A stretch of 64,000 nucleotides of DNA from Acidobacteriota bacterium. GTDB taxonomy: Bacteria > Acidobacteriota > Vicinamibacteria > Fen-336. The DNA lies in contig JAJDNS010000190.1 in NCBI GenBank assembly GCA_022340585.1, forward strand, positions 4,130-68,129. Reading direction: 5' to 3'. The notes beneath the pieces were generated by a model. It saw only the letters and a list, made by a program, of their open reading frames with translations, did no database searches and was not told the origin of the DNA. A program made the position numbers and the translations under genes. Numbering within the stretch: position 1 is the first letter of the stretch; the number at the start of each line of letters is the position of its first letter. Positions 3,879-29,520 of the stretch are shown in pieces.

Positions 3879-6119
3879 ATGGCCGTGTGGACAGTGGCTC
3901 TGGTCGCCGCCGGCTGCGGCCGGGCGGCCCCGGAGTGGAAGAGCTCCCTCGACCTCGCGGACTTCGTGGCTCACCAGAGGCTGAACGTCAGGACCCAGCT
4001 GATCTCCCCGGCGGACGGCCTCGGGCTTGACAACATCGGCTCCGGTTGGCAACTGCGTGACGACGAGGAAGACGAGCCCATCGCCGAGATGCCTCGCCAG
4101 CTGGGGCGGCTGCGAATCTTTGCTCCGGAGGCCGATGTCGCGTCTATCGAGGTCGAGCTGGGCCTGTCCCCCGACGCCGGCTCCCGCGCGGTGGCGGTGA
4201 GTGTCAGCTTCAATCGGGAGCCGTTGGCCGAACTCGACGTCGTGCAGGCCTGGTCGACCTACCGCATGGAGGTGCCGGCGGAGCTGGTCCGGCCCGGCCT
4301 CAACGTCCTCGATTTCCGGGACTCGGAGAGGAAGCGGAAGAAACGCTCGGTCCGACTCCGGCGCGCGCGATTCTCTCCGAGCAGCGGGGGAGCGCCCTGG
4401 CCCCGCCGCCCCGATCGTGTCCGGGCTGCCCGCGTCGAGGCAGATGGGGCCGTGGAGGGCCGTGTGGAGATGCCGACGGGGAGCTTTCTGGACATGGTCT
4501 TCCGCGTGCCGGAGGGAAGTGAGCTCACCGGCCGCTTCAGCCTGGAGCCCGCCCCGGGGAAGAACCCCGCGCCCGTCGTGGTCTCCGTCCGGCTGCTCGA
4601 CGCGCGAGGCGAGGAGCACAGCTTGCTCCGGGAACGCGTGGACGGGGAGGTGGCTCGTCCGCGGGCGGTGAGTGGCGATCTCAGGCGGTGGGCGGGCGAG
4701 CTGGTCCGTCTGCGGTGGGCGGTGAGAGGGCCGGGCCAGGCCCTCCTCCGGTGGCACGGGGCCGGCGTCCGGTCCACCGACCCGGGTCTGGAACCACCCC
4801 GCCCCGTCATCGAGCGGGTCGCGCCGGGCCGGTCCGGCCGGCTGGGCCAGCCCGACGTGATCGTGATCCTGCTCGACGCGGCGCGGGCGGACGCCTTCTC
4901 CCCCTTCGGCGGTCCCCACGAGACCCCCGCCGTCGCGCGCCTGGCCGCCGGCGGCACGGTGTTTCGCCAGGCCCGGACCGGCTCGTCGTGGACCCTCCAG
5001 TCGGTCACCAGCATGCTCACCGGGATGTACGCCGACGCGCTGGGTATTGCCGCCTGGAGAGACCGGCTGCCCGACGAGGTGCCGTCGCTCCCGGAGCTGA
5101 TGGAATCCGCCGGCTACGACACCGTTCTCTTCTCACAGCACCCGTTCTACCGGTACGACGAAAGCTACCGGCGTGGCTTCCAGACGGTCCGCGTTCTCCG
5201 GGGAGACGACACGACGACCCTGCCCGCGGCCCGGGAGCTCCTGGCCTCTCCGGGGCCGACCTTCGCGCTCGTCCACCTTCTCCCACCTCACATTCCCTAC
5301 ACGCCGCCGGAGCCCTTTCGCGGGCGCTACACCTCGGCCTACGCGGGCGACATGACGGTGGAGCCCGCGCGCCTGCGCCCGTTCACCCCCGACCGCCCGG
5401 AGCGGCCCACCGAAGCCGACGTGCGCTACGTCCGCGATCGCTACCAGGAGAACGTGGCTTACGCGGACAGCCTGTTGAGCCGGGTGCTGGGAATCCTCGA
5501 CCGGAGCGGGCGCTACGACGACGCCCTGATCGTTCTCCTCTCGGATCACGGCGAGGCCTTCCTGGAGCACGGGCGGTTCGTGCACTCCCTGGACCTCCAT
5601 CGCGAGGTCCTGCACGTCCCCCTCGTGATCAAGTGGCCCCGATCGTTGGCGGGCTTCCGCGCGGTGGTTGACGAGCCGGTGAGCCTGCTGGACCTCGTTC
5701 CCACCCTGGTCGATGGCCTCGCCCTCCGCGGCGCCGACGACGGCTTCCAGGGCCGGAGTCTCCTTCCCCTCGTCCTCGGCGAGGCGGTCTCCCCCCGGAG
5801 CTTCTACGCCGTGACGCGGGGCGAGGGCAGCCCCAACCGCGCCGCGACGCCGCGGATGATGCTCGAGTCCCGGGGCCGGAGCCTGCACTTCGCCCCCCTC
5901 GTCGGCCGCACCGAGCTTTATGATGTCGAGAAGGATCCCGGGGAGAGGAACGACCTCGCCCCGCACCAACCGCTGGAGGCCCTGCTCCTTCGCCAGAGCC
6001 TGCTCGTCCAGTCGGCCTGGAACCGTGAGCTTCTCCGGGTCGAGGGCGACGAGCGGCCGTCCGAGGAGCTCGACGACGAGAGCGTCGAACAGCTTGAAGC
6101 GCTGGGGTACCTGAACTGA
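3879..6119 (+). CDS. sulfatase-fold (alkaline-phosphatase superfamily) lipoprotein, Thr-type nucleophile motif, paralog 1
   Basis: Inner ATG 3879 of ORF 3555..6119 gives MAVWTVALVAAGC (lipobox). The C-terminal half has PDVIVILLDAARAD, GSSWTLQSVTSMLTG, LLSDHGEAFLEHG and ELYDVEKDPGERNDL. The ~330-aa N-terminal region looks beta-rich. Confidence 0.8.
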   Translation: MAVWTVALVAAGCGRAAPEWKSSLDLADFVAHQRLNVRTQLISPADGLGLDNIGSGWQLRDDEEDEPIAEMPRQLGRLRIFAPEADVASIEVELGLSPDAGSRAVAVSVSFNREPLAELDVVQAWSTYRMEVPAELVRPGLNVLDFRDSERKRKKRSVRLRRARFSPSSGGAPWPRRPDRVRAARVEADGAVEGRVEMPTGSFLDMVFRVPEGSELTGRFSLEPAPGKNPAPVVVSVRLLDARGEEHSLLRERVDGEVARPRAVSGDLRRWAGELVRLRWAVRGPGQALLRWHGAGVRSTDPGLEPPRPVIERVAPGRSGRLGQPDVIVILLDAARADAFSPFGGPHETPAVARLAAGGTVFRQARTGSSWTLQSVTSMLTGMYADALGIAAWRDRLPDEVPSLPELMESAGYDTVLFSQHPFYRYDESYRRGFQTVRVLRGDDTTTLPAARELLASPGPTFALVHLLPPHIPYTPPEPFRGRYTSAYAGDMTVEPARLRPFTPDRPERPTEADVRYVRDRYQENVAYADSLLSRVLGILDRSGRYDDALIVLLSDHGEAFLEHGRFVHSLDLHREVLHVPLVIKWPRSLAGFRAVVDEPVSLLDLVPTLVDGLALRGADDGFQGRSLLPLVLGEAVSPRSFYAVTRGEGSPNRAATPRMMLESRGRSLHFAPLVGRTELYDVEKDPGERNDLAPHQPLEALLLRQSLLVQSAWNRELLRVEGDERPSEELDDESVEQLEALGYLN

Positions 6120-6121
6120 CG

Positions 6122-8434
6122 ATGAAGACCAGAAACCGACGCCGCCTCGAATGGGGCGGAGGGCCGGGAATCCCGGGCCCCGTGGGGCCGCTGGCCCTGA
6201 CCGCCCTCCTGGTGGCGGGTGCCTGCGGTCCGCCGCACCGCGACTGGAAGAGCTCGCTCGATCTCGCCGACTTCGTGGCCCACCAGAGGCAGAACCTCAG
6301 CACCGAGACCATCTCGACGTCCCTGGGCACCGGCCTCGACGACATCGGCTCCGGCTGGCGGTTGCGCGAGGACGAGGAGGGCGCGCCGGTTGCCGAGATG
6401 CGCCGCCAGCTCGGACGTCTGCGCGTCTACTCTCCCGAGGCTGATCTGGCGTCGGTCGAGCTCGAGCTGGGCCTGTCCCCCGCGGACGAGCCCGGCCCGG
6501 TGAGGGTGAACGTCCACCTCAACCGGCAGTCGCTGGCCGATCTCGATGTCTCCAGGCCGTGGTCGACCTACCGCATGGAGGTGCCGGCGGCGATGGTGCG
6601 GCCCGGTCTCAACGTCCTCGACGTCTGGCACATGGAGAGGAGCCGGACGCAGCCCTCGGTCCGACTCCGGCGGGTGCGGCTTCTCTCGCGCCGCGGGCGC
6701 CCGCTCTGGCCGGAGCGGCCCGACACCATCCGGGTCCGGGATGTCGAAGTCGAGGGGGCCATCGAGCGGCGCGTGGAGATGCCCACCGCGAGCTACCTGG
6801 ACATGGTCCTGCGGGTCCCCGAGGGCGCGTACCTCGCCGGCGGATTCAGCGTCGAACGCGCCCCGGGAGAGGACGCTGCCGTCGTCGACGTCTCGGTCGG
6901 GCTGTTGGACGAAAGCGGCGAAGAGCAGAGCCTTCTCCACGAGCAGGTGGAGGGCGCGTTGGCCGGTTCCCGGAAGCTGGGCGTCGACCTGGCGGGATGG
7001 GCGGGTGAGCTCGTCCGTCTGAGGTGGACAGTGACGGGGGCAGGCAACGCGCTCGTGCGGTGGCACGGGGCCCGAGTCCTCTCCACCGAGCCCCGCCTGG
7101 AGCCACCTTCCCCGCCCATCCGGCGGGTCGCCCCGGGTCGGTCCGGTCGCCTGGGTCGGCCGGACGTGATCGTGATCCTGCTCGACGCGGCACGGGCGGA
7201 TGTCTTCTCTCCCTTCGGCGGTCCCCACGAGACTCCCGCGGTCGCGCGCCTGGCGGCCGACGGGACGGTGTTTCGGTCGGCCGTGGCCGGCTCGTCGTGG
7301 ACTCTTCCCTCGGTCTCCGCCATGCTGACCGGGCTCCACGCCGACACCCTCGGGGTCGGAGCGTGGGAAGACCGCTTGCCCGACGAGGTGCCCACCCTCC
7401 CCGAGCTGATGACGTCGGCCGGCTACCGGTCGGTTCTCTTTTCCCAGCACCCCTTCTACGCGTACGAGACGAGCTTCAAGCGGGGGTTCAAGAGGTTCCG
7501 GGCCCTGCGGGGCAAAGACACCACGGAGCTGCCCCGTCGCCGGGAGCTCATGGCCCGCAATTCGAAGCGTCGGACGTTCGCGCTGGTTCACCTGCTGCCT
7601 CCGCACACTCCCTACACCCCCCCGCCCCCGTTCCGGGGGCGGTACACCGCGGACTACACCGGCGACATGAAGGTCGACGCGACGTACCTGAACAGCTTCC
7701 ACCCGACGGACTCCGAGAGGCCGGACGAGGACGACGTGGACTACGTGCGCGGCCGCTATCTCGAGAACGTGGCGTACGCGGACAGCCTGGTGGGCCGTGT
7801 GCTGAAGAGGCTGGACCAGCACGGGCGGTACGACGACACCCTGGTGGTGCTGCTCGCGGATCACGGCGAGGCCTTCATGGAGCACGGACGCTTCCTGCAC
7901 TCCCAGAACGTCCACCGCGAGCTCCTCCACGTCCCGCTGGTGGTCAAGTGGCCGGCGTCGGTCACGGGCTTCCGCAGGGTGGTGGACGACCCCGTCAGCC
8001 TGCTCGACCTCCTTCCCACCCTCGTGGATGGGCTGGCGCTCGACGGCGCCGCCGATGGCTTCCAGGGCCGGAGCTTCCTTCCCCTCGCCTTCGGTGAGCC
8101 GGGCGGCGAGCGGTCCTTCTACGCCGTGACCCGGGGCGCCAACGGCCCGAACCAGGCCGCGATGCCCCAGCTCATGCTGGAGTCGGGGGGGTGGCGCGTG
8201 CACTCCACGCCCCTCCTCGGCACCACCGAGCTCTATGACGTTTCTCGAGACCCTCTCGAGACGCGCGACCTGGCTTCCGAGCAGCCCCTCCAGGCCCTGC
8301 TCCTCCTCCAGAGCCTCCAGATCCAGTCGGCCTGGAACCGGGAGCTCCTCCGGAAGGGGAGGCCCGGTGAAGCCGGTGGCGATCTCGATGCCGACGCGAT
8401 CGAGCAGCTCGAGGCGCTGGGCTACCTGAACTGA
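6122..8434 (+). CDS. sulfatase-fold lipoprotein, Thr-type nucleophile motif, paralog 2 (tandem duplicate)
   Basis: Starts 2 nt after the paralog 1 stop. Lipobox LLVAGAC. It is colinear with paralog 1 along its whole length (about 70% identity by eye in the catalytic half). The two share WKSSLDLADFVAHQR at the N-terminus and EQLEALGYLN at the C-terminus. Confidence 0.85.
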   Translation: MKTRNRRRLEWGGGPGIPGPVGPLALTALLVAGACGPPHRDWKSSLDLADFVAHQRQNLSTETISTSLGTGLDDIGSGWRLREDEEGAPVAEMRRQLGRLRVYSPEADLASVELELGLSPADEPGPVRVNVHLNRQSLADLDVSRPWSTYRMEVPAAMVRPGLNVLDVWHMERSRTQPSVRLRRVRLLSRRGRPLWPERPDTIRVRDVEVEGAIERRVEMPTASYLDMVLRVPEGAYLAGGFSVERAPGEDAAVVDVSVGLLDESGEEQSLLHEQVEGALAGSRKLGVDLAGWAGELVRLRWTVTGAGNALVRWHGARVLSTEPRLEPPSPPIRRVAPGRSGRLGRPDVIVILLDAARADVFSPFGGPHETPAVARLAADGTVFRSAVAGSSWTLPSVSAMLTGLHADTLGVGAWEDRLPDEVPTLPELMTSAGYRSVLFSQHPFYAYETSFKRGFKRFRALRGKDTTELPRRRELMARNSKRRTFALVHLLPPHTPYTPPPPFRGRYTADYTGDMKVDATYLNSFHPTDSERPDEDDVDYVRGRYLENVAYADSLVGRVLKRLDQHGRYDDTLVVLLADHGEAFMEHGRFLHSQNVHRELLHVPLVVKWPASVTGFRRVVDDPVSLLDLLPTLVDGLALDGAADGFQGRSFLPLAFGEPGGERSFYAVTRGANGPNQAAMPQLMLESGGWRVHSTPLLGTTELYDVSRDPLETRDLASEQPLQALLLLQSLQIQSAWNRELLRKGRPGEAGGDLDADAIEQLEALGYLN

Positions 8435-8439
8435 GCCTG

Positions 8440-8445
8440 TAGAAT
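8440..8445 (+). promoter_or_regulatory. -10-like TAGAAT, 8 nt upstream of ATG 8454 (candidate leaderless promoter)
   Basis: ctgTAGAATcgtcccccATG. There is no Shine-Dalgarno sequence between the hexamer and the ATG. Confidence 0.4.
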
Positions 8446-8453
8446 CGTCCCCC

Positions 8454-10634
8454 ATGGACACGGACGCGGGCGCACCCCCGCCGAAGGGAGTTGTCGCCGC
8501 CTGGGCCGTGCTGGGCCTCGCGCTTCTCCTCGCCTTCGGGGGCGCGGCGCGCTCGCCCGAAGGGACTCTCCTGGGGGCCCCGGGGCTCGTCGGGCTCGTG
8601 GTGGGCGCGTCAGCTCTGGCCCTCGGGATGGCCCGCGGAGGCTGGAGGGCGGGCGGCGTCGCCCTGGGCCTGCTCCCTCTCCTGGCCCTGATCCTCGCCG
8701 GGCTTCCCGTTCCGGGGGCCCGGGCTCTCACCGGGCCTCCCCTCTTCGCCCTGGGGCTGGCCGCCGCGGTGTTGATCGTGGGGAATCGAAAGGGCACGGG
8801 ACCGCCTTGGCTGTTCCTCGTCGTGGTCTTGGGCGTTCACCTCACCGCGGCCGGGCGCGTCCAGTCCCAGGTGGGGCCGAACGGCGATGAGCCCCACTAC
8901 CTCATGGTGGCGGACAGTCTCCTGCGGGACGGGGACGTCGCGGTGGAGAAGGACTACGAGGAAGGACGCTACCGCGCGTTCCACCCGAAGCCCCTCGCGC
9001 CTCACTACCGGGTCCGCGGCCGCGAGGGAGTGATCTACTCGCTGCACGCGGTGGGTCTGTCCCTCCTGATCCTTCCGGCGTACGCGCTGGGGGGATACGC
9101 CGGGGCCTCGTTCTTCATGGCGCTCCTGGGCGTCCTCGTGGCGTGGGAGATTCGGGGCCTGCTGAGGGACGTGCTGGGCGGGGCCGCCGGGGCCGGGGGC
9201 GAGGGCCTCCGGGCCGCCGACACGGTCGCGTGGGTCGTCGCCCTGTCACCACCCCTCGTCCACTTCGCCGGGCTCGTCTTCACCGAGGTTGCGGCGGCAC
9301 TCCTGGTCGTTCTCGTCCTGCGTCACGCGCGGGGTCTCCGGGACAAGCCCTGGTGGGTCGCCCTGGCCATGGGTGTCGCCACGGCTTTCCTGCCCTGGCT
9401 CAACGTCCGCTACGTGCCCATAGCGGGCCTGCTCCTTCTCTACGCGCTGTGGCAGAGGCCGCGGTGGCCCGGGGCGCTCGCCCTTCTCCTCGCGGCGGCG
9501 GGATCCGCGCTGGCCAGCGCCCTCTACCACTTCACCCTCTACGGGTTCTTCGACCCCACCCGGGTGTACGGTCGCCGCCACGACCTGGTCCTGGCCCGCA
9601 TCCCCGAGGGCGTGGGCGGGATCCTCTTCGATCAGGAGTTCGGCCTACTCGTGTACGCCCCGGTCCTGGCCCTCTCCCTCTTCGGGTTCGTCCTCCTGGT
9701 GAAGCGGGAGCGCGCCACCGGCCTCGCCTCCCTTGCCGTCACCCTGGCCACCCTGGGGGTGGCCGGCTCATGGATGATGTGGCGCGGCGGCTTCAACCCG
9801 GCGGCCCGTTTCCTGGTCCCGGTGATGCCGGCCCTGGCCCTGGCGGTCGGGGCGGCCCTGCCGCGGGGGTTCAACGCGCCCGCCGCCCTCCTGGCGGGGT
9901 GGAGCCTGTTCGCCGGCCTCGGTGGGGCACTGGAGCCTCGCCTCGTCCATCGCGACCGCGACGGGACCGCGCCCTTCTTCCGCGAGATGTCGGGCGCCGA
10001 GGAGTGGACGCGCCTCCTGCCGGGATACGTCCTGACCGAAACCGCCCGCGACAAGCGGCCGCTCACCGTGGTCTGGGGGCTCGCTCTCTTCGTGGCCATT
10101 CTCCCTCGCCGGCGGGGGCGAGAGGGCCCTCCAAGGGAAGGGGCCGGGCGGCTGGCCCTGGCCGCCGCGGGACTGCTGATGGCCACCGGGGCAGCCTCGG
10201 TGGTGTCGCACGGGCGCACCGGCGGGCGCGATGCGGTGCGCGTGATCGGACGGCCGGCGGTCGAGGTGCCCGGCTGGAAGCCGACGTCCGACGCCGCCGC
10301 GGTCTGGGGGGCGGAGGCCCTGCCCTGGGGCCCCGTCTACGAGCCCCACCGGCACCCCGAGGGCGCCGTGCTCGGAGCCCGGCTGCCTCTCCCGGCGGGC
10401 CGGTATTCCCTTCGGCTGCGAGGGGACCGCTACGGCCCCTCGCTCCCGGCGCTCAGCGTCCAGGACTCGCCGGCCCACGAGCCGAAGCCGGTGGGGGCTC
10501 TCCGCCCCGACGCCGATGGCCTGGCCGGCGAGGTCGTGGTGCCTCCGGGACAACGCGAGACCACGCTGCGGATGGCTGGCGGCGACCCCCTGCGTCTCGA
10601 CTCCGTGGAGCTGCGTCTCACCGGCGAGTCTTGA
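8454..10634 (+). CDS. large polytopic membrane protein, GT-C-like (ArnT/PMT-type), with ~150-aa C-terminal soluble domain
   Basis: It has at least 10 hydrophobic helices. The loop motif GPNGDEPHYLMVADSLLRDGDVAVEKDY resembles the acidic first-loop motif of GT-C enzymes. The C-terminal region is beta-rich (RYSLRLRGDRYGP...LDSVELRL). Confidence 0.65.
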   Translation: MDTDAGAPPPKGVVAAWAVLGLALLLAFGGAARSPEGTLLGAPGLVGLVVGASALALGMARGGWRAGGVALGLLPLLALILAGLPVPGARALTGPPLFALGLAAAVLIVGNRKGTGPPWLFLVVVLGVHLTAAGRVQSQVGPNGDEPHYLMVADSLLRDGDVAVEKDYEEGRYRAFHPKPLAPHYRVRGREGVIYSLHAVGLSLLILPAYALGGYAGASFFMALLGVLVAWEIRGLLRDVLGGAAGAGGEGLRAADTVAWVVALSPPLVHFAGLVFTEVAAALLVVLVLRHARGLRDKPWWVALAMGVATAFLPWLNVRYVPIAGLLLLYALWQRPRWPGALALLLAAAGSALASALYHFTLYGFFDPTRVYGRRHDLVLARIPEGVGGILFDQEFGLLVYAPVLALSLFGFVLLVKRERATGLASLAVTLATLGVAGSWMMWRGGFNPAARFLVPVMPALALAVGAALPRGFNAPAALLAGWSLFAGLGGALEPRLVHRDRDGTAPFFREMSGAEEWTRLLPGYVLTETARDKRPLTVVWGLALFVAILPRRRGREGPPREGAGRLALAAAGLLMATGAASVVSHGRTGGRDAVRVIGRPAVEVPGWKPTSDAAAVWGAEALPWGPVYEPHRHPEGAVLGARLPLPAGRYSLRLRGDRYGPSLPALSVQDSPAHEPKPVGALRPDADGLAGEVVVPPGQRETTLRMAGGDPLRLDSVELRLTGES

Positions 10635-10662
10635 CCCGGGACCGTCCGCTCCCCGCGCCGCC

Positions 10663-12414: not shown

Positions 12415-12425
12415 GCGCTCGGGAG

Positions 12426-12431
12426 AGGCTA
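12426..12431 (-). promoter_or_regulatory. extended -10-like TGcTAGCCT, 11 nt upstream of ATG 12414
   Basis: Minus strand reads gtgcTAGCCTctcccgagcgcATG, in the divergent 82-bp intergenic region. Confidence 0.35.
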
Positions 12432-12481
12432 GCACGCCCGCGTCGACCCGGCAGCACGGGGGCGGATGGCAGGCGACGGGG

Positions 12482-12487
12482 TAGAAT
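12482..12487 (+). promoter_or_regulatory. -10-like TAGAAT, 9 nt upstream of TTG 12497
   Basis: ggggTAGAATccgcgggtcTTGcgt. No Shine-Dalgarno sequence. Confidence 0.4.
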
Positions 12488-12496
12488 CCGCGGGTC

Positions 12497-15139
12497 TTGC
12501 GTCGCGTGGTCTCCCTCGCTGCCCGTGCGGGTGCCGCCCTCTGCGTCGTGCTCATGGCGCTCGCGGTCACCCGCTGGGCTCCCGTTCACGCCGAGCCGCC
12601 CCTCGACGTCCGGGCCCTGCCAATCGCCCCGTGGGCCCTGGGGTTCGCTGCCGTTGCCGCCCTGACCGGTGGCTCGCGGCGGCCGGGCCCGTGGCGCCGG
12701 GTGGCCCTCCTGCTGGCGGTGGCCGTGGGGACGCTCGCGTTGACCGTGGCCGCGCGGAGCCCCGCCGGGCTCTCCGCCGTCGTCTCCACCGGCGGCGCGG
12801 AGGTGGGCCGCACGGTGCCGGGGCCGATCGACATCGTCGGACGTGACCTGCGGCGCTTCGACCTCCGGCGGCTCACCCTGGATTGGGCGGGGGAGCTGCG
12901 CGTGCCCGAATCGGGACGGTACCTTCTTCATCTCGACGGTCGCGGCGGCGCCCAGGTGAGCGTGGGGGAGTGGCCGGTTCTCGACGCTTCCGGTGAGACG
13001 TTCTCGGGCGAGAGCGAGATCGCCCTGGGCCGGGGGGCGACGCCTCTCGAGGTGCACCTGGAGTTCCGGGGGCGGGGGCCGCGGCTGAGTCTGGGCTGGA
13101 CGCGGCCCGACGGGCGCCGCGAGATCATCCCGCCCCGCTACCTCGGACCGCCCATCGGCGGCTGGCAGTGGGCGCTCACCGATCTCCTGGCCCTCGGCGC
13201 GGCCCTGCTGGCGGGGCTGCTCGTCTTCCTCGCGCCCTGGGACGAGCCCCGGCGGCTCCCCCTGCCCCGGCCGGTCACGGGCCCCGAAATCGCCTCCGCG
13301 AGCGTAGGCTACGTTCTCCTGCTCGCGGCCATGAGCTGGCCGCTCGTCCGGGACCTCGCGCACGCCGGGCCGCTTTATCGCCCGGACGGGCGCCTCAATG
13401 CCTGGATCCTGGGCTGGGGCGGGCACGCGCTGTGGACCGAGCCCTGGCGGGTCTTCCAGGCCCCGTCGTTCCATCCACTGCCCGACACGCTGGCCTTCTC
13501 CGAGAGCATGCTCCTACCCGCGGCCCTCGCCGAGCCGGCCCAGGTTCTCGGCGGTCCCGTCCTCGCCTACAACCTCGTCTTCCTGGCGAGCCTCCTGTTC
13601 TCCGGACTCGGGACCTACCTCCTGGTCCGCCGGGGCGGAGGGGACCGCCTGGCCGCGTTCGCGGGGGGGGCCTTCTTTGCCGCCGGGCCCCACCGCTGGA
13701 CGCGCCTGCCCCACATCCAGGCGCAGGTGACGGCCTTTCTACCCTTCGCGCTGCTGGCCCTCGACCGCTTCTGGGAGCGGCGGACGCTTCGGCGGGCCCT
13801 GGTGGTGGGGCTGCTGGTGGCCCTCCAGGGGCTGAGCTCGGTGTACCTGGGCGCGATCACCGCCGTCGCGGTGACGGTGGCGGTGGCGGTGGGTCTCTTC
13901 GGAGGCCTTCGCCCCCGCGACCTGGGCCGCCTCGCCGCCGGCTTCCTGCTGGCCGCGGTGATCCTGTGGCCCATGGCCCGTCCGTACTTCCGGATGCGCG
14001 CCTTCCAGGGACAGGAGTTCCACCTCCAGGACGTCGCCGCCGCCGCCGCCACGCTGCCCTCCTACGCCGCATCGGGGACGCACCTGTGGGGAGACGTGAC
14101 GGGAAGGCAGCTCGAGCCCGGGCAGGCGACCGACGTGCTCTTTCCCGGACTCGTGGTCCTGGTCCTGGCTCTCTTCGGACTCGCGGTGGCGCCCCGACGC
14201 TACCGAGCGGTGGGCCTGGCCCTCATCGTGGTCGCTGTCGTCTTCTCCCTCGGCCCGGCCACCGCCGTGTACCGCTGGCTTCACGAGCACGTCGTGCTGA
14301 TCCGGGCCGTGCGGGTGCTGACCCGGTTCGCCCTCATCCCGTTCCTGGTCCTCGCGGTGCTGGCCGGCCTCGCCCTCACCGGCCGGCGTCGCCTCGCCGT
14401 TCTCCTGGCCCTGATCGGGATGATGGCGGAGTCGTCCAACCTGCCCCTGCGTCTCTCGCGGGAGGGCGGGCCCCCGCCGGCCGCCCGGTGGCTCGCGGGC
14501 CGGGAGGGGGCGGTGGTCTACCTTCCGGTGGGCGAGGGCGACACCCAGGCCCTCCTCGACGGCCTGGCCCACCTCCGGCCCCTGGTGAACGGCGGCGGCG
14601 CGTTCATGCCCCGCTCCTACGACCGGGCGCTCGACATGCTCGGGGGCACCACCCTGGACGACGAGGGTCTCCGCTTCCTCCGCGCCGTCGATGTCCGGCA
14701 CGTCGTTTCCCGCCAGCCCCTGGAGCTGCCCGTCGCCGCGGCCTTCCCGGAGGAGACGGTCTACGAGGTGCCCGACGGACCCGCGGCGGCCCCGGTGACC
14801 GCCGGAGTGCCGGTCTCCACGCGCTGGGACGCGACCTGGGTGAGCGTCGATCTCGGAGAGGTCCGGCCCGTGAGCGGCCTCGTGTTCGAGCTGGGCGACG
14901 GTCCCTGGAACGAGAGCCCCCGCGTCGCGGCCTCCCGCGATGGCCAGACGTTCGAGGAGGTGAAGGCCCGGGCGAGCCTCGCCGACGCGACGGTCTCGCT
15001 GTATCGCGATCCGCGGCGCGGACGGGGACACGTGCTCTTCGCCCCGCTGCCGGCCCGCATCCTGCGGATCGAACGGGCCTTTCCCATTCGCCCGGGGGTC
15101 CTCGAGGTCGTTCCGGGCACCGGCCCGGGCCCGCGGTAG
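12497..15139 (+). CDS. 880-aa membrane protein: N-terminal TM helices + PA14-like domain + polytopic GT-C-like core + C-terminal discoidin (F5/8 type C)-like domain
   Basis: PA14-like segment: LDWAGELRVPESGRYLLHLDGRGGAQVSVGEW...LEVHLEFRGRGPRLSLGW. Core motifs are shared with 16809..18794 and 18929..21274 (PDTLAFSESMLLPA, GLGTYLLVRR, HLRPLVNGGGAFMP). The C-terminus has WVSVDLGEVRPVSGLVFELGDGPW...SRDGQTFEEV. Confidence 0.7.
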   Translation: MRRVVSLAARAGAALCVVLMALAVTRWAPVHAEPPLDVRALPIAPWALGFAAVAALTGGSRRPGPWRRVALLLAVAVGTLALTVAARSPAGLSAVVSTGGAEVGRTVPGPIDIVGRDLRRFDLRRLTLDWAGELRVPESGRYLLHLDGRGGAQVSVGEWPVLDASGETFSGESEIALGRGATPLEVHLEFRGRGPRLSLGWTRPDGRREIIPPRYLGPPIGGWQWALTDLLALGAALLAGLLVFLAPWDEPRRLPLPRPVTGPEIASASVGYVLLLAAMSWPLVRDLAHAGPLYRPDGRLNAWILGWGGHALWTEPWRVFQAPSFHPLPDTLAFSESMLLPAALAEPAQVLGGPVLAYNLVFLASLLFSGLGTYLLVRRGGGDRLAAFAGGAFFAAGPHRWTRLPHIQAQVTAFLPFALLALDRFWERRTLRRALVVGLLVALQGLSSVYLGAITAVAVTVAVAVGLFGGLRPRDLGRLAAGFLLAAVILWPMARPYFRMRAFQGQEFHLQDVAAAAATLPSYAASGTHLWGDVTGRQLEPGQATDVLFPGLVVLVLALFGLAVAPRRYRAVGLALIVVAVVFSLGPATAVYRWLHEHVVLIRAVRVLTRFALIPFLVLAVLAGLALTGRRRLAVLLALIGMMAESSNLPLRLSREGGPPPAARWLAGREGAVVYLPVGEGDTQALLDGLAHLRPLVNGGGAFMPRSYDRALDMLGGTTLDDEGLRFLRAVDVRHVVSRQPLELPVAAAFPEETVYEVPDGPAAAPVTAGVPVSTRWDATWVSVDLGEVRPVSGLVFELGDGPWNESPRVAASRDGQTFEEVKARASLADATVSLYRDPRRGRGHVLFAPLPARILRIERAFPIRPGVLEVVPGTGPGPR

Positions 15140-15142
15140 AAT
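15137..15142 (+). promoter_or_regulatory. -10-like TAGAAT overlapping the TAG stop of the preceding gene, 23 nt upstream of ATG 15166
   Basis: cgcggTAGAATcccactcttccgagcgaaacgagATG. Confidence 0.25.
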
Positions 15143-15165
15143 CCCACTCTTCCGAGCGAAACGAG

Positions 15166-16842
15166 ATGGGGCCAGACACCTCCGTCGCCACGCCCGACCC
15201 GAGGGACGAGAACCGTCTCGTTCTCTGGGCCTACCGCCTCTTCCCCGTTCTCCTGCTTCCCCTGATGCTCGTCCTGTCGAGGGACTTCGGCATCACCTGG
15301 GACGAGAGGACCCACCAGCAGTACGGGCAGCGGGTCTGGGCCTTTCTCGCCGAGGGGAAGGACAACAACTGGTTCCGACCCGGGCTCGTGTACATGTACC
15401 TGCACGGGGGGCTGTTCGACGCCTTGTGCATCGGAGCCGAGAAGGTCCTGAAGGGCGACCTCTGGACGAACCGCCACTACGTGAACGCCTTCTTCGGGTG
15501 GCTCGGAGTCGTCTCCGCCGGGGGCATTGGACGGATGCTGGGGGGGGCGGGCACCGGCCTGCTGGCCATGGTCCTCCTCGTGGTGTCGCCGCGCTTCTTC
15601 GCCGACGCCATGGCCAACCCGAAGGACATCCCCTTCGCGGCCCTGGCGACGGCGACCCTGTACTTCCTCCTCCGCCTCGATCCCCGGTACCCGTTCCTGA
15701 GATGGCCGCTGGCGATCCCGACCGCCATCTCGATCGGCCTGGCGCTGAACGTGCGGGCCGGGGCGGTGCTGTTCCTCGCCTACCTCGCCCTCGCCCTCGG
15801 CGCCCTGACTCTCGCGCGCCGCGAGCTCTCGCCCCGCCGGCTCGCTGCCACCGGGGCGCGGTGGCTGGTGGTGAGCGTGGCCGCCCTCTTCATCGGGTCG
15901 GCCTTCTGGCCGTGGGCGCGTGGATCCCCGCTCACCCGACCCTTCGAAGCAGTGAGACGACTCTCGGAGTTCGACTGGACCCACCACCTGCTCTACAACG
16001 GGGCCGACATCACCGGGGACACCCTGCCCTGGGACTACGTGCCCCGCTGGGCCTTGATCGGGACGCCCCCGGTGGTCCTCCTGGGGGCGGCACTGGCCCT
16101 CCTGATGCTGCTCCACCCGCGCACGCGGGGGCGGTGGCGGCTGCTGGCGGTGTGGGGGGCCACGCTGTTCCCGGCGGTCTACGTGGTCGTCTCCCACGCC
16201 ACGATCTACGACGGGATCCGGCACCTGCTCTTCACCTACCTGCCCCTCGTGGCGCTGGCAGGGTGGGCCTGGGTCGAGCTGCTACGGAGCCGGCGGCGGG
16301 CCCTGAGTATCCTCACCGGCGGGGTGCTCGTCCTCGGGCTCCTGGAGCCGGTGGTCTTCCAGTGGCGCAACCACCCGCACCAGGCCGTCTACTTCAACTT
16401 CCTCGTCGGCGGACCCCGCGGCGCCTTCGGCCGGTTCGAGATGGACTACTGGGGCGTGAGCGTTCGCGACGCGGTGCAGTGGGTGGGCCGGGCCGCCGAC
16501 GCCGCCGGCACTCCCCTCGTCGTCTCCGGTCACCCGCACCAGATCGTGCGTGACGAGAGCCGACGGATCAAGGGGCTGGACTACAACCGGATCGAGAAAC
16601 AGGACCACCACGTCGAGGTGGTGCTGCTTCGCGGTCCCCGGGCCGACGTCATGGAGCTGGCCGAGCGGACCGACGCCCTGTACCGGGTCTCCACCGCCGA
16701 CGGGACCCCCCTCACCGTCGTGGTCCCGGGGCCGCGCTACGGCGAGGTCGAGGACGCCCTCGGTGTCGCTCTCGAGAGGGCGCCCCGGGACGTGGCTCGC
16801 GCGGCGTCCTACTCGAGAGGTCGGGCGGCGGGCAGGGAGTAG
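15166..16842 (+). CDS. polytopic membrane protein, GT-C-like (family 39/ArnT-PMT-type)
   Basis: In-frame ATG inside ORF 13168..16842; the upstream part is Arg/Pro/Gly junk overlapping the previous gene. Motifs: GITWDERTHQQYG (acidic first loop), NPKDIPFAAL, IYDGIRHLLF, EMDYWGVS. The C-terminal ~120 aa are soluble. Confidence 0.7.
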   Translation: MGPDTSVATPDPRDENRLVLWAYRLFPVLLLPLMLVLSRDFGITWDERTHQQYGQRVWAFLAEGKDNNWFRPGLVYMYLHGGLFDALCIGAEKVLKGDLWTNRHYVNAFFGWLGVVSAGGIGRMLGGAGTGLLAMVLLVVSPRFFADAMANPKDIPFAALATATLYFLLRLDPRYPFLRWPLAIPTAISIGLALNVRAGAVLFLAYLALALGALTLARRELSPRRLAATGARWLVVSVAALFIGSAFWPWARGSPLTRPFEAVRRLSEFDWTHHLLYNGADITGDTLPWDYVPRWALIGTPPVVLLGAALALLMLLHPRTRGRWRLLAVWGATLFPAVYVVVSHATIYDGIRHLLFTYLPLVALAGWAWVELLRSRRRALSILTGGVLVLGLLEPVVFQWRNHPHQAVYFNFLVGGPRGAFGRFEMDYWGVSVRDAVQWVGRAADAAGTPLVVSGHPHQIVRDESRRIKGLDYNRIEKQDHHVEVVLLRGPRADVMELAERTDALYRVSTADGTPLTVVVPGPRYGEVEDALGVALERAPRDVARAASYSRGRAAGRE

Positions 16843-18794
16843 AGCCGCCCGTCGTCGGTCTCGGCCTCGAGGTGAAGGCGATCCGGGAACTCCGCGGCCC
16901 GCGCCCCGACGCGGTCCCAGTCCTCTTCCGAGTAGAAATCCCTGTGCAGCACCGCGTAGCCCACGCCGAGCTCCTCGAGCTCGCGCAGGCTGGCGAGGTC
17001 GGGGAAGGCGGTCAGGATCATGAACAGGCGCTGGTGGCGCGGAGGGACGATGCCGCTGTAGCCGTTCACGAGGGGCTGCCAGTGCGCCATCGAGTGGAGC
17101 ATGTAGTAGGAGTGCAGCCGCGCGGACCGGGTGGCGTCCGTGGGGTCGGGCACCGGGAACCCGGCGGCGGCGAACGGGCGTGGCCGCGTGGCCAGCTCCC
17201 GGTCGATGGCCGGGATGTCGATGCCATAGTCCCGCGCGCCGAGGGGGAACGCCGCGAGTTCGCCCACCAGGAGGACGACGGCGGCGGCGCCCACCCACAC
17301 GCCTCGCGGGGCCTTCAGGCCCCGGACGAGACGGTCGAGGCCCACCGCGGCGAGCACGCCGAGGGCCAGGAGCGTCAAGATCCCCAGACGCGAGGGGACA
17401 CGGATGAGGTCGAAGCCGGGCAGGATCCGGTAGAGCACCTTGTAGAGGATCCACTCCGGGCCCAGGGTGAGCCAGACCGAGAGGACGGCCAGGACGACGT
17501 AGAAGCCCGCGTCCAGGCCCATGCGCGTCTCGAGGAAGCGGCGGAGGGCCTCGCGCATCCGCACGAGGGGCGGGGCGAAGGCGAAGGGCCGGAGCCGTGC
17601 GACCCCGAGGCGCAGGACGACCAGCACGCCGAGAACGACGAAGGCCCGGTTCGCGTTACGGGCGGTGATCGTCGCGCCTCCCACCGTCCACCGGATGCCG
17701 CCCTCGACGTGGATCGCGAGGGCCGCCAGCGCAACGAGGACCACGGCCCCGTCGAGAACCTTCAGCCACCAGGGCGCCCCCGGAGCGGCGGGAGGAATCG
17801 CCGCTGTGACCTCGTCGCCGTCCCCGCCTCGTCGGCCGAACGCCAGCGCCGCGAGCAGGAGGGTGATCCAGCCCGGGAAGAGGTAGGCCTTCGCGTCCGC
17901 AACCTTCGCCTGGACGCCGGGGAACAGGGAGAGAAGCCACTCCTGTACGTGCGCGGGGGAGGCCAGAAAGCTCACGGCGTTGGGGACCCAGTCGTAGACG
18001 GCGCCGATGGTCCGGTGGAGGCCCACGTCGTGCTGAGCCCGCAGGTACGGGACCAGGAAGACGAGGTTCACGGCGAGGAGGAGGAGGCCCACGACGCCCA
18101 GGTCCCGGAGCATGCGCCCGGGGCCTGGCAGCTGGCCGAAGACCCAGTCGTAGAGGATGAGGGCTCCGAGGGCGAGGGTGAGGAAGAGCCCGCCGTGGCC
18201 GCTGCTGAGCGACTGGACGGTGAAGAACGCGGCCACGGCCACGAGGTCGCGGCGGTGCCGGTGCCGTGCGTAGAGGTGCATGAAGGCCAGGGCGAACGGG
18301 ATCCACTGGACGACGGCGACGTGGACCTGGGCCAGACGCACGAAGCGGGCGGGACCGAACGCGAAGACGACGCCGGCGGCCAGGGCGGCGACCGCACCCA
18401 CGCCCAGGCGCCGGGCCAGGTAGTAGGCCCCGAGCCCGGACAGGACGCAGGAGAGGAGGACGATCACGTTGAGGGCGAGGACGGGGTTGCCCGTGGCCAG
18501 CAGGGCCGGGGCCCCGAGGACCGCGCTGCCGATCAGGTGCTCGGAGTAGGCGAGGGTGCGAGGCTCGGGGAAGAAGATGTTGGCGTCGAAGATGGAGAGC
18601 GGCTGGTGCAGGAGGGCGTGCACGTCCCAGGAGATCGTCCAGAGGAAGAGTCGCGTGTCCGCCGACAGGGGCAGAGCCTTCGTGGCCGGGGCCAGGCTGA
18701 GAGGCGCGGCCAGGACGAGGGTGAGGAGGACGAACAGCAGACCCACGAAGACGAGCTCGCGGCCCCGCACGCCGCCGGGGGGCGCGGTGCTCAC
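16809..18794 (-). CDS. 661-aa polytopic membrane protein, paralog of 12497..15139 core (GT-C-like)
   Basis: GTG 18794 is preceded by GAGGGG. Motifs: FFPEPRTLAYSEHLIGSAVLGAP, SGLGAYYLARRLG, FAFGPARFVRL, VQSLSSGHGG, HWQPLVNGYSGIVPP. Its 3' end overlaps the convergent gene by 34 nt. Confidence 0.75.
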   Translation of the reverse strand: MSTAPPGGVRGRELVFVGLLFVLLTLVLAAPLSLAPATKALPLSADTRLFLWTISWDVHALLHQPLSIFDANIFFPEPRTLAYSEHLIGSAVLGAPALLATGNPVLALNVIVLLSCVLSGLGAYYLARRLGVGAVAALAAGVVFAFGPARFVRLAQVHVAVVQWIPFALAFMHLYARHRHRRDLVAVAAFFTVQSLSSGHGGLFLTLALGALILYDWVFGQLPGPGRMLRDLGVVGLLLLAVNLVFLVPYLRAQHDVGLHRTIGAVYDWVPNAVSFLASPAHVQEWLLSLFPGVQAKVADAKAYLFPGWITLLLAALAFGRRGGDGDEVTAAIPPAAPGAPWWLKVLDGAVVLVALAALAIHVEGGIRWTVGGATITARNANRAFVVLGVLVVLRLGVARLRPFAFAPPLVRMREALRRFLETRMGLDAGFYVVLAVLSVWLTLGPEWILYKVLYRILPGFDLIRVPSRLGILTLLALGVLAAVGLDRLVRGLKAPRGVWVGAAAVVLLVGELAAFPLGARDYGIDIPAIDRELATRPRPFAAAGFPVPDPTDATRSARLHSYYMLHSMAHWQPLVNGYSGIVPPRHQRLFMILTAFPDLASLRELEELGVGYAVLHRDFYSEEDWDRVGARAAEFPDRLHLEAETDDGRLYSLPAARPLE

Positions 18795-18915
18795 GCCTGC
18801 CCCTCGAGCCCGGGAGAGGGCGTGTGGCGTCGCGTCCGGGGCGAGCGTGGCATCGGGCCATCGGAGTCTATCTCATGCCCCCCTCGGGCGCGCCGAGCGC
18901 CTCCGAGGCCTGTGC

Positions 18916-18921
18916 TAGGCT
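18916..18921 (+). promoter_or_regulatory. extended -10-like TGcTAGGCT, 7 nt upstream of ATG 18929
   Basis: cctgtgcTAGGCTcgggcccATGgtc. Confidence 0.35.
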
Positions 18922-18928
18922 CGGGCCC

Positions 18929-21274
18929 ATGGTCCGGCGCGCCGGCTTCCCCGTGCTCCTCCTGGCGCTGGGCCTCGTCGCCGGCGTTCTGGTGGCGCGG
19001 GTCCCCCCCGACCTCGAGCGCACCGTCGTCACCCGCCGGCACCACACCTCCGACCCCCTGCACACCGCGGTGCTCCTCCGCTTCGACGTGGACAGCCTGC
19101 TCCATCACCCCACCCGGTACTTCCAACCCCCCTTCCTCTATCCCGACCCCAACCCCATGCGGGGAACGGAGCCGCTCATCGCCGAGGCCCTCCTGGCCGT
19201 CCCCTTCCGCCTGCTCCTGGGGGACCGTCCTGCTGGGGTGTTCACGTGGGTGAGGATCGTCACCCTGGCCCTTCTCACCTTCGCCACCGGGCTCATGCTG
19301 AAAGAGCTGGGGACGAGCCGCGCCCTGGCCCTCCTGGGGGGCGGCCTGGCGGTGCTGGTGGCGAGCACTCCTTTCTTCTTCGATCGACTCCAGGCCGTGT
19401 CCCTCCAGTGGCTGCCCCTGGGGATCTTCTTCGCAGCCCGGTACGGGAAGCGGGGACGCCTCCTGGACCTGGGGGCCTTCGGCGTGTGCGTTTTCCTGAC
19501 CATCCAGGCCAGCCTCTACACCACGGTCATGCTCCTCGCCGTCGTTCCCTTCCTCCTTCCCCTCGCCCGGCACGGGCTGATGGTCGACCGGAGACGGACG
19601 CTGTCCCTGGGGGGGGCGGCCCTGGCGGCGGGGGCGGTCTCGATCCTGGTGCTCTGGCCCTACCTCACCCGCCGCGGCGACATCGCGGTTTACTCCAGCG
19701 CGGCCTTCGTGGGGGAGAAGAGCTGGGGCGCCGCCGCCCTCAACGCCCTCCTCACCACGGCTCCGGAGTACGAGGCGAACCGCTGGCCCCCGTCCCCTCC
19801 CGCCCGATGGGGCGACGTGTACCCCGACGCCGCGGTCTACCCCGGTGCGGCCTTCGTGCTCATGGTCGCTGTGGTGGCGCTCCTCGCCCTCGTGGACGGG
19901 GTGAGAGCGCGCCGTGACGGGAGGGCGCCGCCGGGAGGGGTCGCCACGAGAGGCGCGCTGGCCCTGCTCCTCACGGCCTTCGTGGGGACGGTGGCGCACT
20001 CGGCCTGGGCCGGGCCCTCCTCGGCCACCCGATTCGCGGCCGGCGGGCTTCTGTGGGTCGTCCTCGTCGCCTGGTGGCTGCGGCTGGCCCGGTGGCCCCG
20101 GGTGGGGGACTCCGAGGGAGCCCTCCGACTCCTCGCCAGCGCCTCCTCCCTGGCCGCCCTGGTCCTGCTGTTCCTGAGCTTCGGCAGCCCGGTGCGCCTG
20201 GAGGCCTTCGGGCCGGGCTTTCTGGAGGGGCTCTTTCGTCCTCTCTCGTCGGTCTTCACGCCGCTGCGGGAGCTGCGGGAGCTGAAGCGCTTCCTCATGC
20301 CCGCGGGCTGGGCGGCAGTGGTGGCCTTCGTCCTCATGCTCGAGCTCCGCCTGCGTCGCCGGGCCCCCGCCGCGGCCGCCGTTCTTGCCACGGTGCTCCT
20401 CGCCCTCGGGTTGGGAGAGCGGCTGAGGGCCGACACCAGGAAGGTCTTCGTCCCGCCCCCTCCCGCTCCCTACGCGCTCCTCGAGGACTCCTCGGGAACC
20501 GGTGGGCTCCTCGAGCTGCCCTTCGAGCCGTGGGGCCAGGTGCGGTCTGTCCAGCGCATGCTGTGGCAGCCCTCCCACGGTCGTCCCATCGTCGCCGGCA
20601 AGACCGGGATCGATCCCGGCTGGTACACGCCGGCGCGCGAGGTCTTCAACGAGTTCCCGTCCGACGAGAGCGTGCGGCTGATGCGGACCTGGGGCCTCGA
20701 CAGCGTCCTCGACCACCGGCCCGACGCCGCACCGCTCGATGGGGCCACGTTGCCTGAAGGGGTCGTCCCGCGCGGCCGCCAGAGAGATCGGGGAGGCCGG
20801 CGGGAGTGGCGCCTGTACGACGTGCTGGGCTCCTCGCCCGCCCTGACCCCCGAGCCGACCCCCGGCCCGGGGACGTGGCGTCGGCCCGGGGGGGCGACGG
20901 GAGACGCGGCGGCACCCCCGGCGACCGATGGCTCACCGAGCACCGCGGGGGAGATCACGAGTCCAGACGGACTCGAGCTGCGGGCTCCCGACGAGGGGAT
21001 CGTGGTCGCCCTGGAGCTGGACTACGGCCCTGGCCGCTTCAATCGAGTGCCGCCCCAGCTCAGCGTGCTCGGTCTCGTGGACGGCGAATGGACGAATCTC
21101 ACCATGCCGCCGAGTGGCACGCTCCTGCGCGCGAGGGCGGCCGAACAGCTCCTGCGGCACCAGTCCGCTCGACTGGTGATCACACTGCAGCCGAGCGCGG
21201 CGCGGCGCCTGCGCCTCCTCTCGAGCCGGGTGCCCTGGGACCTTCCCGAGGTCCGTGTCCGCGTGCGCCCCTGA
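18929..21274 (+). CDS. 781-aa polytopic membrane protein, third paralog of the same family, with C-terminal beta-sandwich (discoidin-like) domain
   Basis: Inner ATG 18929 starts MVRRAGFPVLLLALGLVAGV. Motifs: YFQPPFLYPDPNPMRGTEPLIAEALLAVPF and SHGRPIVAGKTGIDPGWY. C-terminus: VVALELDYGPGRFNRVPPQLSVLGLVDGEWTNL...ARRLRLL. Confidence 0.7.
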   Translation: MVRRAGFPVLLLALGLVAGVLVARVPPDLERTVVTRRHHTSDPLHTAVLLRFDVDSLLHHPTRYFQPPFLYPDPNPMRGTEPLIAEALLAVPFRLLLGDRPAGVFTWVRIVTLALLTFATGLMLKELGTSRALALLGGGLAVLVASTPFFFDRLQAVSLQWLPLGIFFAARYGKRGRLLDLGAFGVCVFLTIQASLYTTVMLLAVVPFLLPLARHGLMVDRRRTLSLGGAALAAGAVSILVLWPYLTRRGDIAVYSSAAFVGEKSWGAAALNALLTTAPEYEANRWPPSPPARWGDVYPDAAVYPGAAFVLMVAVVALLALVDGVRARRDGRAPPGGVATRGALALLLTAFVGTVAHSAWAGPSSATRFAAGGLLWVVLVAWWLRLARWPRVGDSEGALRLLASASSLAALVLLFLSFGSPVRLEAFGPGFLEGLFRPLSSVFTPLRELRELKRFLMPAGWAAVVAFVLMLELRLRRRAPAAAAVLATVLLALGLGERLRADTRKVFVPPPPAPYALLEDSSGTGGLLELPFEPWGQVRSVQRMLWQPSHGRPIVAGKTGIDPGWYTPAREVFNEFPSDESVRLMRTWGLDSVLDHRPDAAPLDGATLPEGVVPRGRQRDRGGRREWRLYDVLGSSPALTPEPTPGPGTWRRPGGATGDAAAPPATDGSPSTAGEITSPDGLELRAPDEGIVVALELDYGPGRFNRVPPQLSVLGLVDGEWTNLTMPPSGTLLRARAAEQLLRHQSARLVITLQPSAARRLRLLSSRVPWDLPEVRVRVRP

Positions 21275-29380: not shown

Positions 29381-29520
29381 CTCGCCTCCTCCGGCGAAGG
29401 GCAACGCGCTCCGGTGGTCTGCCGGAAGAGACCCTAGCGCCCCTGGCCCCGGAGTGCGGCGATCCCCGTCACACTTCGCCCCGTGCTCCTGGCCGCGGGT
29501 CGCGGTCTCGGGGGAGGCGC

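Follow-up and report, generated by a model that had tools for sequence, protein, structure and literature searches.

Do eight consecutive large genes, two encoding sulfatase-fold lipoproteins (g1 and g2) and six encoding large membrane proteins (g3–g8), form one periplasm-facing system for the assembly and decoration of a glycan, or are they independent enzymes that share a neighbourhood? This question is raised by positions 3879–21274 of the 64-kb window (the whole stretch of DNA analysed here), which comes from the metagenome-assembled genome of an uncultured, soil-type bacterium and whose homologs carry names pointing to Acidobacteriota, class Vicinamibacteria. An earlier reading of the same DNA, made without database searches and referred to below as the sequence-only reading, had proposed a single system. 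The answer that we favour, and consider fairly likely, is that periplasmic GT-C glycosyltransferases of at least four families, each acting independently, have come to share this interval in one lineage, and that it is not a conserved operon or island. Taken as a whole, and held with about the same degree of belief, this reading includes the formation of the neighbourhood in part by local duplication, of g5, g7, and g8 on the one hand, and of g1 and g2 on the other. The observations that carry it are the folds of the proteins, their conserved residues, their paralogy, and the pattern of synteny in relatives.

Because most long open reading frames (ORFs) are spurious in sequence of ~71% GC, the real ones were picked by the GC content of the third codon position (GC3). 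GC content is flat across the window (0.70–0.75, ~71% overall), and each of the eight genes in the interval has a GC3 of 0.86–0.93 (Table 1). An independent gene caller applied to the source contig gave products of 746, 770, 726, and 583 amino acids for g1, g2, g3, and g4, respectively, so that the eight consecutive large ORFs seen earlier are borne out by codon bias and, for the first four, by this second method as well. The genes follow one another in the strand order + + + − + + − +, which amounts to four strand switches, not to the three counted in the sequence-only reading, and they fall into at least five transcription units (g1-g2-g3, g4, g5-g6, g7, and g8), with gaps of 3 nucleotides (nt) between g1 and g2, 20 nt between g2 and g3, and 26 nt between g5 and g6. 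A sigma-70 scan, with a consensus that may not suit Acidobacterial promoters, found no promoter in the divergent gaps of the interval, and the single sigma-70-like site that it returned is located outside. This outcome speaks neither for nor against the separate promoters that the sequence-only reading had attributed to the strand switches. The 3′ ends of the convergent genes g6 (+) and g7 (−) overlap by 34 nt (16809–16842).

Table 1. The eight genes of the interval, with their positions in the window and the basis of each description.
Gene	Position	Strand	Product	Basis
g1	3879..6119	+	746-residue lipoprotein; N-terminal domain of ~300 residues, similar to the BcsB carbohydrate-binding domain (CBD), and Thr-nucleophile sulfatase-fold domain of the alkaline phosphatase (AP) superfamily	Pfam, lipobox, alignments, GC3
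g2	6122..8434	+	770 residues; tandem paralog of g1 with the same architecture	blastp, PF00884, lipobox
g3	8454..10634	+	726-residue GT-C-fold membrane protein with a C-terminal β-sandwich (residues ~600–723)	AlphaFold, Foldseek, alignment
g4	10663..12414	−	583-residue polytopic membrane protein, PMT_2-like (GT-C clan)	Pfam; start from gene caller, longest ORF to 12570
g5	12497..15139	+	880 residues; three N-terminal transmembrane (TM) segments, periplasmic PA14 domain, GT-C core, sub-threshold C-terminal discoidin-like domain	Pfam, blastp
g6	15166..16842	+	558-residue ArnT/PMT_2-like GT-C protein of a large, widespread family	Profile, PMT_2, conserved residues
g7	16809..18794	−	661-residue GT-C-fold protein (PF10131-like) with a C-terminal α/β periplasmic domain	AlphaFold, Foldseek
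g8	18929..21274	+	781-residue distant paralog of g7 and g5; long C-terminal extension without family match	blastp; alternative GTG start at 18824

Membrane proteins g3–g8

All six membrane proteins are polytopic, with ~9–13 hydrophobic segments each as judged by hydropathy and, for g3 and g7, by the helices of AlphaFold models, in agreement with their earlier description as proteins rich in hydrophobic helices. Neither the g3 nor the g7 family profile returned anything useful when the PDB was searched by sequence, and the folds therefore had to be compared directly. The model of g3 (pLDDT 81.9, pTM 0.85) has three Foldseek matches in the PDB at E ≤ 1e-3, all of them GT-C enzymes (EmbB, 2.6e-5; EmbA/B; ArnT, 4e-4), followed by further matches with a probability of ~1.0, again all GT-C (ALG9, AftA, AglB, and AftD); AftB was matched as well. 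The model of g7 (pLDDT 86.5, pTM 0.87) has 20 matches at E ≤ 1e-3, every one of them a GT-C protein, among them DPY19 (2.3e-7), ArnT, STT3, AftD, and AglB. The beta-rich C-terminal domains that the sequence-only reading had assigned to these proteins are found in the form of a β-sandwich in g3, but the corresponding domain of g7 is of the mixed α/β type.

No Pfam family matches g3, although 17 of the 20 members of its family match the NCBIfam model NF047440, 'LA_3751/LA_3752 putative glycosyltransferase' (best 1.2e-14). The motif GDEPHY, with D145 and E146, is invariant in all 20 aligned sequences, and the family was seen only in Acidobacteriota/Vicinamibacteria. In the case of g7, the aspartate just after the first TM segment, D46, is invariant in 24 of 24 sequences of an alignment that includes g5 and g8, as is E85. 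Since R10 and R12 place the N terminus in the cytoplasm according to the positive-inside rule, D46 would be located on the periplasmic side.

The three proteins g5, g7, and g8 are paralogs, as seen from blastp comparisons (g5–g7, 1e-24; g8–g7, 2e-8; g8–g5, 2e-4). With a cut-off of 26.4 bits, PF10131 (PTPS_related) scores 22.7 against g7 and 16.9 against g5, does not match g8, and is matched at E ≤ 0.01 by 9 of the 24 members of the g7 family; by these scores g5 and g7 are remote relatives of PF10131, not members of it. PF10131 itself is placed in the Pfam GT-C clan CL0111, with its function unknown (PMC7801869). The coding character of g8 is supported by its GC3 of 0.88, and no Pfam or NCBIfam model matches it. 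The fusion of PA14 and discoidin modules to GT-C-like proteins, proposed in the sequence-only reading, holds for PA14 in g5 only, and there narrowly (PF07691 at 25.8 bits, the cut-off being 24, with a weak match in the ortholog from locus L003); the F5/8 type C domain of g5 (PF00754) stays sub-threshold, at 18.3–22.5 bits against 28.2, and neither module was found on the other five membrane proteins.

The two remaining proteins, g4 and g6, are related to PMT_2 (PF13231). With g4 the match is a bare pass (26.2 bits against a gathering threshold of 26.1); its ortholog in L003 has a precomputed PMT_2 match, and a search of the PDB with the single sequence found nothing. The GT-C identity of g4 is thus plausible on the basis of sequence similarity. 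Taken alone, g6 scores 22.7 bits, below the same threshold, but it belongs to a family of 6408 cluster representatives at E ≤ 1e-3, and 19 of 25 sampled relatives match PMT_2 at E ≤ 0.001 (best 3e-8). The family profile matches ArnT (5ezm, 5.6e-7), and two pairs of residues, D46/E47 in GITWDE and Y348/R352 in YDGIRH, are invariant in 25 of 25 sequences. Some g6 relatives (P0402, P0413, P0418, P0446, and others) are ~900–1100 residues long, and in the alignment of 25 family members (A4) an N-terminal GT2 domain is seen in two sequences and TPR repeats in seven. Fusion to GT2 would couple a lipid-sugar synthase with the GT-C enzyme that it supplies, and is the one indirect hint that a polyprenyl-phosphate-linked donor may be used at the extracytoplasmic face; fusion to TPR repeats would correspond to a TMTC-like architecture.

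The acidic loop motifs to which the sequence-only reading had drawn attention in g3 and g6 are therefore real features of the families, as the residues of g3 GDEPHY and of g6 GITWDE and YDGIRH do not vary in the alignments; in g4 the candidate motif is TPDG. Five of the six proteins have good support for a GT-C fold, which comes from predicted structures in the case of g3 and g7, from their paralogy to g7 in that of g5 and g8, and from the ArnT profile and PMT_2 in that of g6; only in g4 does the assignment that had been made for all six stay marginal. The possibility that all six are diverged paralogs was considered and dropped, because hhalign comparisons of g3 with g6 and with g7 were negative. 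No relation among the g3, g6, and g7 profiles was detected by that method, and blastp found no kinship of g3, g4, and g6 to one another or to the g5/g7/g8 group, the only one that is paralogous. The six proteins appear to come from at least four sequence-unrelated families, represented by g3, by the PMT_2/ArnT-like g4 and g6, and by the PF10131-like group of g5, g7, and g8. No functional work on these families came to light in a literature search on PF10131, LA_3751/LA_3752, and Acidobacterial GT-C proteins.

Lipoproteins g1 and g2

The proteins encoded by g1 and g2 are 67% identical (blastp), and the C-terminal half of each matches the Pfam family Sulfatase (PF00884; 3e-40 for residues 325–612 of g1, 1e-41 for g2). 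Both carry a lipobox (VAAG|C in g1, VAGA|C in g2), and hydropathy indicates no TM segment past the signal peptide in either. A longer ORF of 854 residues for g1, starting at 3555, was rejected, since GC3 of positions 3555–3878 is that of non-coding sequence (0.71 against 0.87), which supports the start at 3879. The signal peptide read from this start (MAVWTVALVAAGC) has an n-region with no positive charge, in contrast to that of g2.

The closest relatives of g1 in the PDB are S1 sulfatases, with the choline sulfatase 7oz8 at the top (3.6e-25). In this alignment Thr372 of g1 falls on the formylglycine Ser, and the Pro and Arg of the C/S-x-P-x-R motif are replaced by Gln and Val, so that the nucleophile site reads W-T-L-Q-S-V. 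An alignment of 78 full-length members of the family shows no variation at W371-T372, D333, or D338. The protein also contains the DHG motif 'LLSDHGEAF', which together with Asp333 fits the core metal site. The identification of g1 and g2 as true formylglycine sulfatases was rejected, as the C/S-x-P-x-R motif is absent from them and an invariant WT is found instead. A canonical sulfatase lipoprotein of the Cys type is encoded elsewhere in the window (61436–62731, + strand; PF00884 at 4e-62, lipobox GAGC, motif CAPSR), and the presence of CAPSR in it indicates that the Thr of g1 and g2 is a trait of their family, not noise.

In its Thr nucleophile and in the Asp and His residues of the metal site, g1 agrees with enzymes of the LtaS/EptA/OpgB type, and LtaS, EptA/MCR, and OpgB share with g1 and g2 the sulfatase/AP fold and the position of the Thr nucleophile; the T-x-x-S-V-x-x-M context of this Thr is like that of EptA/MCR in addition. 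The description of g1 and g2 as Thr-type sulfatase-fold lipoproteins of the AP superfamily, given in the sequence-only reading, is thus upheld by PF00884, the lipoboxes, the alignment of Thr372, and the invariant WT. The differences from both groups are nevertheless clear. The S1 formylglycine sulfatases provide the best alignment for the C-terminal half of g1, but lack of the C/S-x-P-x-R motif sets g1 apart. LtaS, EptA, and OpgB have an N-terminal domain with multiple TM segments, in place of which g1 and g2 have the lipobox and the BcsB-CBD-like domain, and the NCBIfam models of EptA, MCR, LtaS, and YejM score only 12–31 bits against g1 and g2, with cut-offs of 400–1250. Judged from sequence comparisons, g1 and g2 are outside the formylglycine sulfatases as well as the LtaS/EptA family. 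The profile of the N-terminal domain of g1 (~300 residues) matches BcsB (4hg6_B/5ej1_B, E ~3e-5) in its carbohydrate-binding region, which gives modest support to a glycan-binding jelly-roll. In a distant relative (39% identity; L057, 7641–12286), g1-type lipoproteins again form an adjacent pair, in divergent orientation, and pairing may be recurrent in this family.

Synteny in relatives

The neighbourhood was compared in other genomes with g1, g3, g5, and g7 as anchors. The survey with g3 took one genome per species and comprised 47 loci, of which 46 bear the label Acidobacteriota or Vicinamibacteria. The full set of eight genes was found in no other locus. Five of the genes are kept in L003 (the same contig as L009), where g3 is 79% identical and g1-g2-g3-g4-g5 are followed by unrelated genes, with g6–g8 missing. 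At ~70% identity, L005 and L006 include g3, a g7-like gene (45–47%), g4, and g5, and no sulfatases. In L005 the true ortholog of g7 (83%) is located several kb past g5, beyond an RND efflux operon, and adjoins Abhydrolase_10 as it does in the window. Anchoring on g5 revealed a relative with 93% identity (L060) that keeps g5-g6-g7, and another with 74% (L059) in which g4 and g5 are accompanied by a g7-like gene; the combination of g3/g4/g5 with a g7-like gene is common to L005, L006, and L059. The homologs of g4 and g5 in L005 (14122–18550) and L006 (16236–20700), both long-read contigs of metagenome-assembled genomes, are split by frameshifts, which are either assembly errors or signs of pseudogenes.

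Such sub-blocks are retained only in relatives with at least ~70% identity. In 45 of 46 g3 loci with identity of 58% or less (42–58%), none of the other seven genes is present within 10 kb. The homologs of g5 at 55–56% lie among genes for TetR, CMD, DUF885, proline dehydrogenase (ProDH), and ribonucleotide reductase (RNR); those of g1 at 39–43% have no GT-C neighbours; and those of g7, at 51% identity as well as in a shorter subfamily, are solitary amid housekeeping genes. Together, the homologs of g1, g5, and g7 that were inspected cover the range of 37–56% identity. The absence of synteny in relatives, which the sequence-only reading had named as the sign of an accidental grouping, is thus largely what was found, with sub-blocks in close relatives only. 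A single assembly and decoration system of eight genes is not supported, as the full set was found nowhere else, the homologs examined are solitary at 58% identity or less, and the genes are divided into at least five transcription units.

Around the g3 homologs of other species the surroundings are different but rather constant. In 37–38 of the 46 loci (L010–L055), the homolog is preceded by LexA and a hypothetical protein of 289 residues, and followed by an extracytoplasmic function (ECF) sigma factor, two small hypothetical proteins, and DUF4912. This arrangement suggests that the g3 family belongs to the core genes of Vicinamibacteria, and it is possibly tied to an envelope-stress regulon.

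The interval was also considered as a horizontally acquired genomic island, and this was rejected in view of the flat GC content, with no flanking tRNA and no integrase seen. ARAGORN reports a tRNA-Arg(tcg) of 93 nt at 24547–24639 (− strand), ~3 kb from the interval and within the Abhydrolase_10 ORF (23443–25557, + strand), which is probably a false positive. Further 3′ of the interval are a DUF4388-DnaJ-TPR protein (25681–27600, + strand) and an FG-GAP repeat protein (27614–29404, − strand), with no evident connection to the eight genes.

Known systems, rival explanations, and meaning

Genes for the synthase and the flippase that serve a GT-C enzyme do not always lie beside its own gene. In a scan that covered the GC3-supported ORFs of the 64-kb window apart from a few short ones, no Pfam match was found for GT-A/GT-B enzymes, a polyprenyl-phosphate-sugar synthase, a flippase, Wzx/Wzy, or nucleotide-sugar genes, nor for PF00535, GtrA, or MATE, and no exporter gene was found among them. 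The claim that the interval has no partners for sugar activation or export holds, accordingly, for the scanned ORFs of the interval and of the whole window. Their absence is less odd than it was held to be, because known GT-C systems use a separate synthase and flippase: in diderms, one enzyme synthesises the lipid-linked sugar, a flippase carries it across, and the periplasmic GT-C enzyme then receives it (PMC11127046).

We infer the donor, the acceptor, the direction of transfer, and any cooperation among the proteins from such parallels. Each GT-C enzyme would take its sugar from a polyprenyl-phosphate-sugar made and flipped by the products of genes located elsewhere in the genome, and would transfer it at the periplasmic face to an acceptor in the envelope, such as lipopolysaccharide, exopolysaccharide, or protein. 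Catalysis may be performed by the conserved Asp/Glu of the first periplasmic loop, with the glycan acceptor presumably held by the PA14 and β-sandwich modules, and the substituents of the glycan on which g1 and g2 act would be phosphoesters instead of sulfates. In short, the products of g1–g8 probably decorate envelope glycans or proteins with lipid-linked donors made elsewhere.

A close parallel is provided by the three-component systems for periplasmic glycosylation in diderm and monoderm bacteria (GtrA/GtrB/Gtr-type, ArnC/ArnT, CsbB/GtcA/YfhO, and the GT136 pentofuranose systems; PMC11127046). They share with the proteins described here the GT-C fold and the acidic residue of the first loop, and, presumably, action outside the cytoplasm on a ready-made envelope glycan; g6 is related to ArnT at the profile level, and some of its relatives are fused to a GT2 synthase. 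They differ in that the window includes no synthase or flippase, has six GT-C genes instead of one, and has no acceptor-synthesis locus nearby. The mycobacterial embCAB/aftA-D arrays (GT53, GT85, and related families) are similar in consisting of several large, clustered GT-C enzymes, some of them paralogous, with periplasmic carbohydrate-binding modules attached, and EmbB and AftD are among the top structural matches of the window proteins. In contrast to them, the proteins of the window have no detectable sequence homology to the mycobacterial enzymes, they come from an Acidobacterium, which is a diderm, their genes are on both strands, synteny is confined to close relatives, and genes of the decaprenyl-P-arabinose pathway, which adjoin the emb/aft arrays, are missing. 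At the level of families, g5 and g7 match PF10131 weakly, PMT_2 (clan CL0111) matches g4 at its threshold and g6 below it, and most of the g3 family matches NF047440; the majority of the window proteins, however, fall short of the curated cut-offs, no Pfam family exists for g3 or g8, and no characterised member is close to any of them.

A periplasm-facing pathway of the Emb/Aft kind in a diderm, in which the GT-C enzymes would sequentially build one polymer and g1 and g2 would add or trim its phospho-substituents, is in our judgment unlikely. The resemblance of g3 and g7 to EmbB, AftD, and AftA speaks for it, together with the lectin-like modules, which recall those of Emb and AftD (PA14 in g5, the β-sandwich in g3, and the BcsB-like domain in g1), and so do the blocks g1–g5 in L003 and g5-g6-g7 in L060. 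Its best arguments are the persistence of g3/g4/g5, accompanied by a g7-like gene in L005, L006, and L059, and the tight spacing of g1-g2-g3. These have to be set against an eight-gene set found in no other locus and against homologs of g1, g3, g5, and g7 that stand alone once identity falls to 58% or below, against five transcription units separated by four strand switches, and against a 64-kb window with no gene for donor synthesis, flipping, or export, unlike emb/aft. The opposite extreme would be pure juxtaposition, with duplication (g5/g7/g8 and g1/g2) and rearrangement in a variable region bringing together enzymes with unrelated substrates. The documented paralogy agrees with it, as does the finding that homologs are solitary elsewhere, and close relatives do differ in the sulfatases, g6, and g8, with an RND operon or a GFO_IDH_MocA gene inserted; this explanation is improbable all the same, since the occurrence of six GT-C genes in ~13 kb, with none in the other 47 kb, would hardly arise by chance, and the sequence-unrelated g3, g4, and g5 are still adjacent in L003, L005, L006, and L059.

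We regard as very unlikely the suggestion that some or all of the GT-C-fold proteins serve as scaffolds, sensors, or transporters, and that g1 and g2 are phosphatases or phosphodiesterases scavenging nutrients, with no link to envelope glycans. PF10131 (PMC7801869) and the g3 family do lack characterised biochemistry, the catalytic domain of g1 is nearest to hydrolases (arylsulfatase/choline sulfatase) and not to the EptA/LtaS transferases, and the membrane domain that the known phospho-transferases possess is missing from g1 and g2. The invariant acidic residues of the first loop, however, occupy the catalytic position of the solved GT-C enzymes, relatives of g6 are fused to GT2, and the N-terminal domain of g1 is BcsB-like. 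The reading that we favour, a neighbourhood of independent GT-C glycosyltransferases, faces several difficulties of its own. One clade unites four GT-C families that are unrelated and elsewhere stand alone, with g3/g4/g5 kept down to ~70% identity, and selection for a common function could be the cause; the gaps of only 3 and 20 nt make g1-g2-g3 look co-transcribed; the evidence for g4 is marginal; predicted structures cover g3 and g7 only; and, since no gene for donor synthesis was seen, the donor chemistry is wholly inferred.

A more specific proposal, which is distinctly unlikely, is that the four dispersed GT-C families, together with g1 and g2, were recruited into a single locus in one lineage of Vicinamibacteria to build or remodel an undescribed glycopolymer of the envelope from polyprenyl-phosphate sugars, wholly on the periplasmic side. 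The locus would then be the diderm equivalent of arabinan assembly in mycobacteria, and g1 and g2 would put phospho-substituents on the polymer or trim them. If such cooperation were real, it would represent the first Emb/Aft-style assembly line for a periplasmic glycan in a diderm, which the synteny makes improbable. The eight proteins belong to known superfamilies, as members yet to be characterised, and do not amount to a new kind of system. Acidobacteria are abundant in soil, and the chemistry of their envelope and exopolysaccharides is almost unknown. The value of the locus lies mainly in annotation and enzyme discovery, for which it offers testable families: that of g3, which has an invariant GDEPHY but is covered by no model in Pfam; the PF10131-like group of g5, g7, and g8, now with a confident GT-C model; and that of g1 and g2, in which an arylsulfatase-like scaffold has exchanged formylglycine for Thr and gained a BcsB-like domain.

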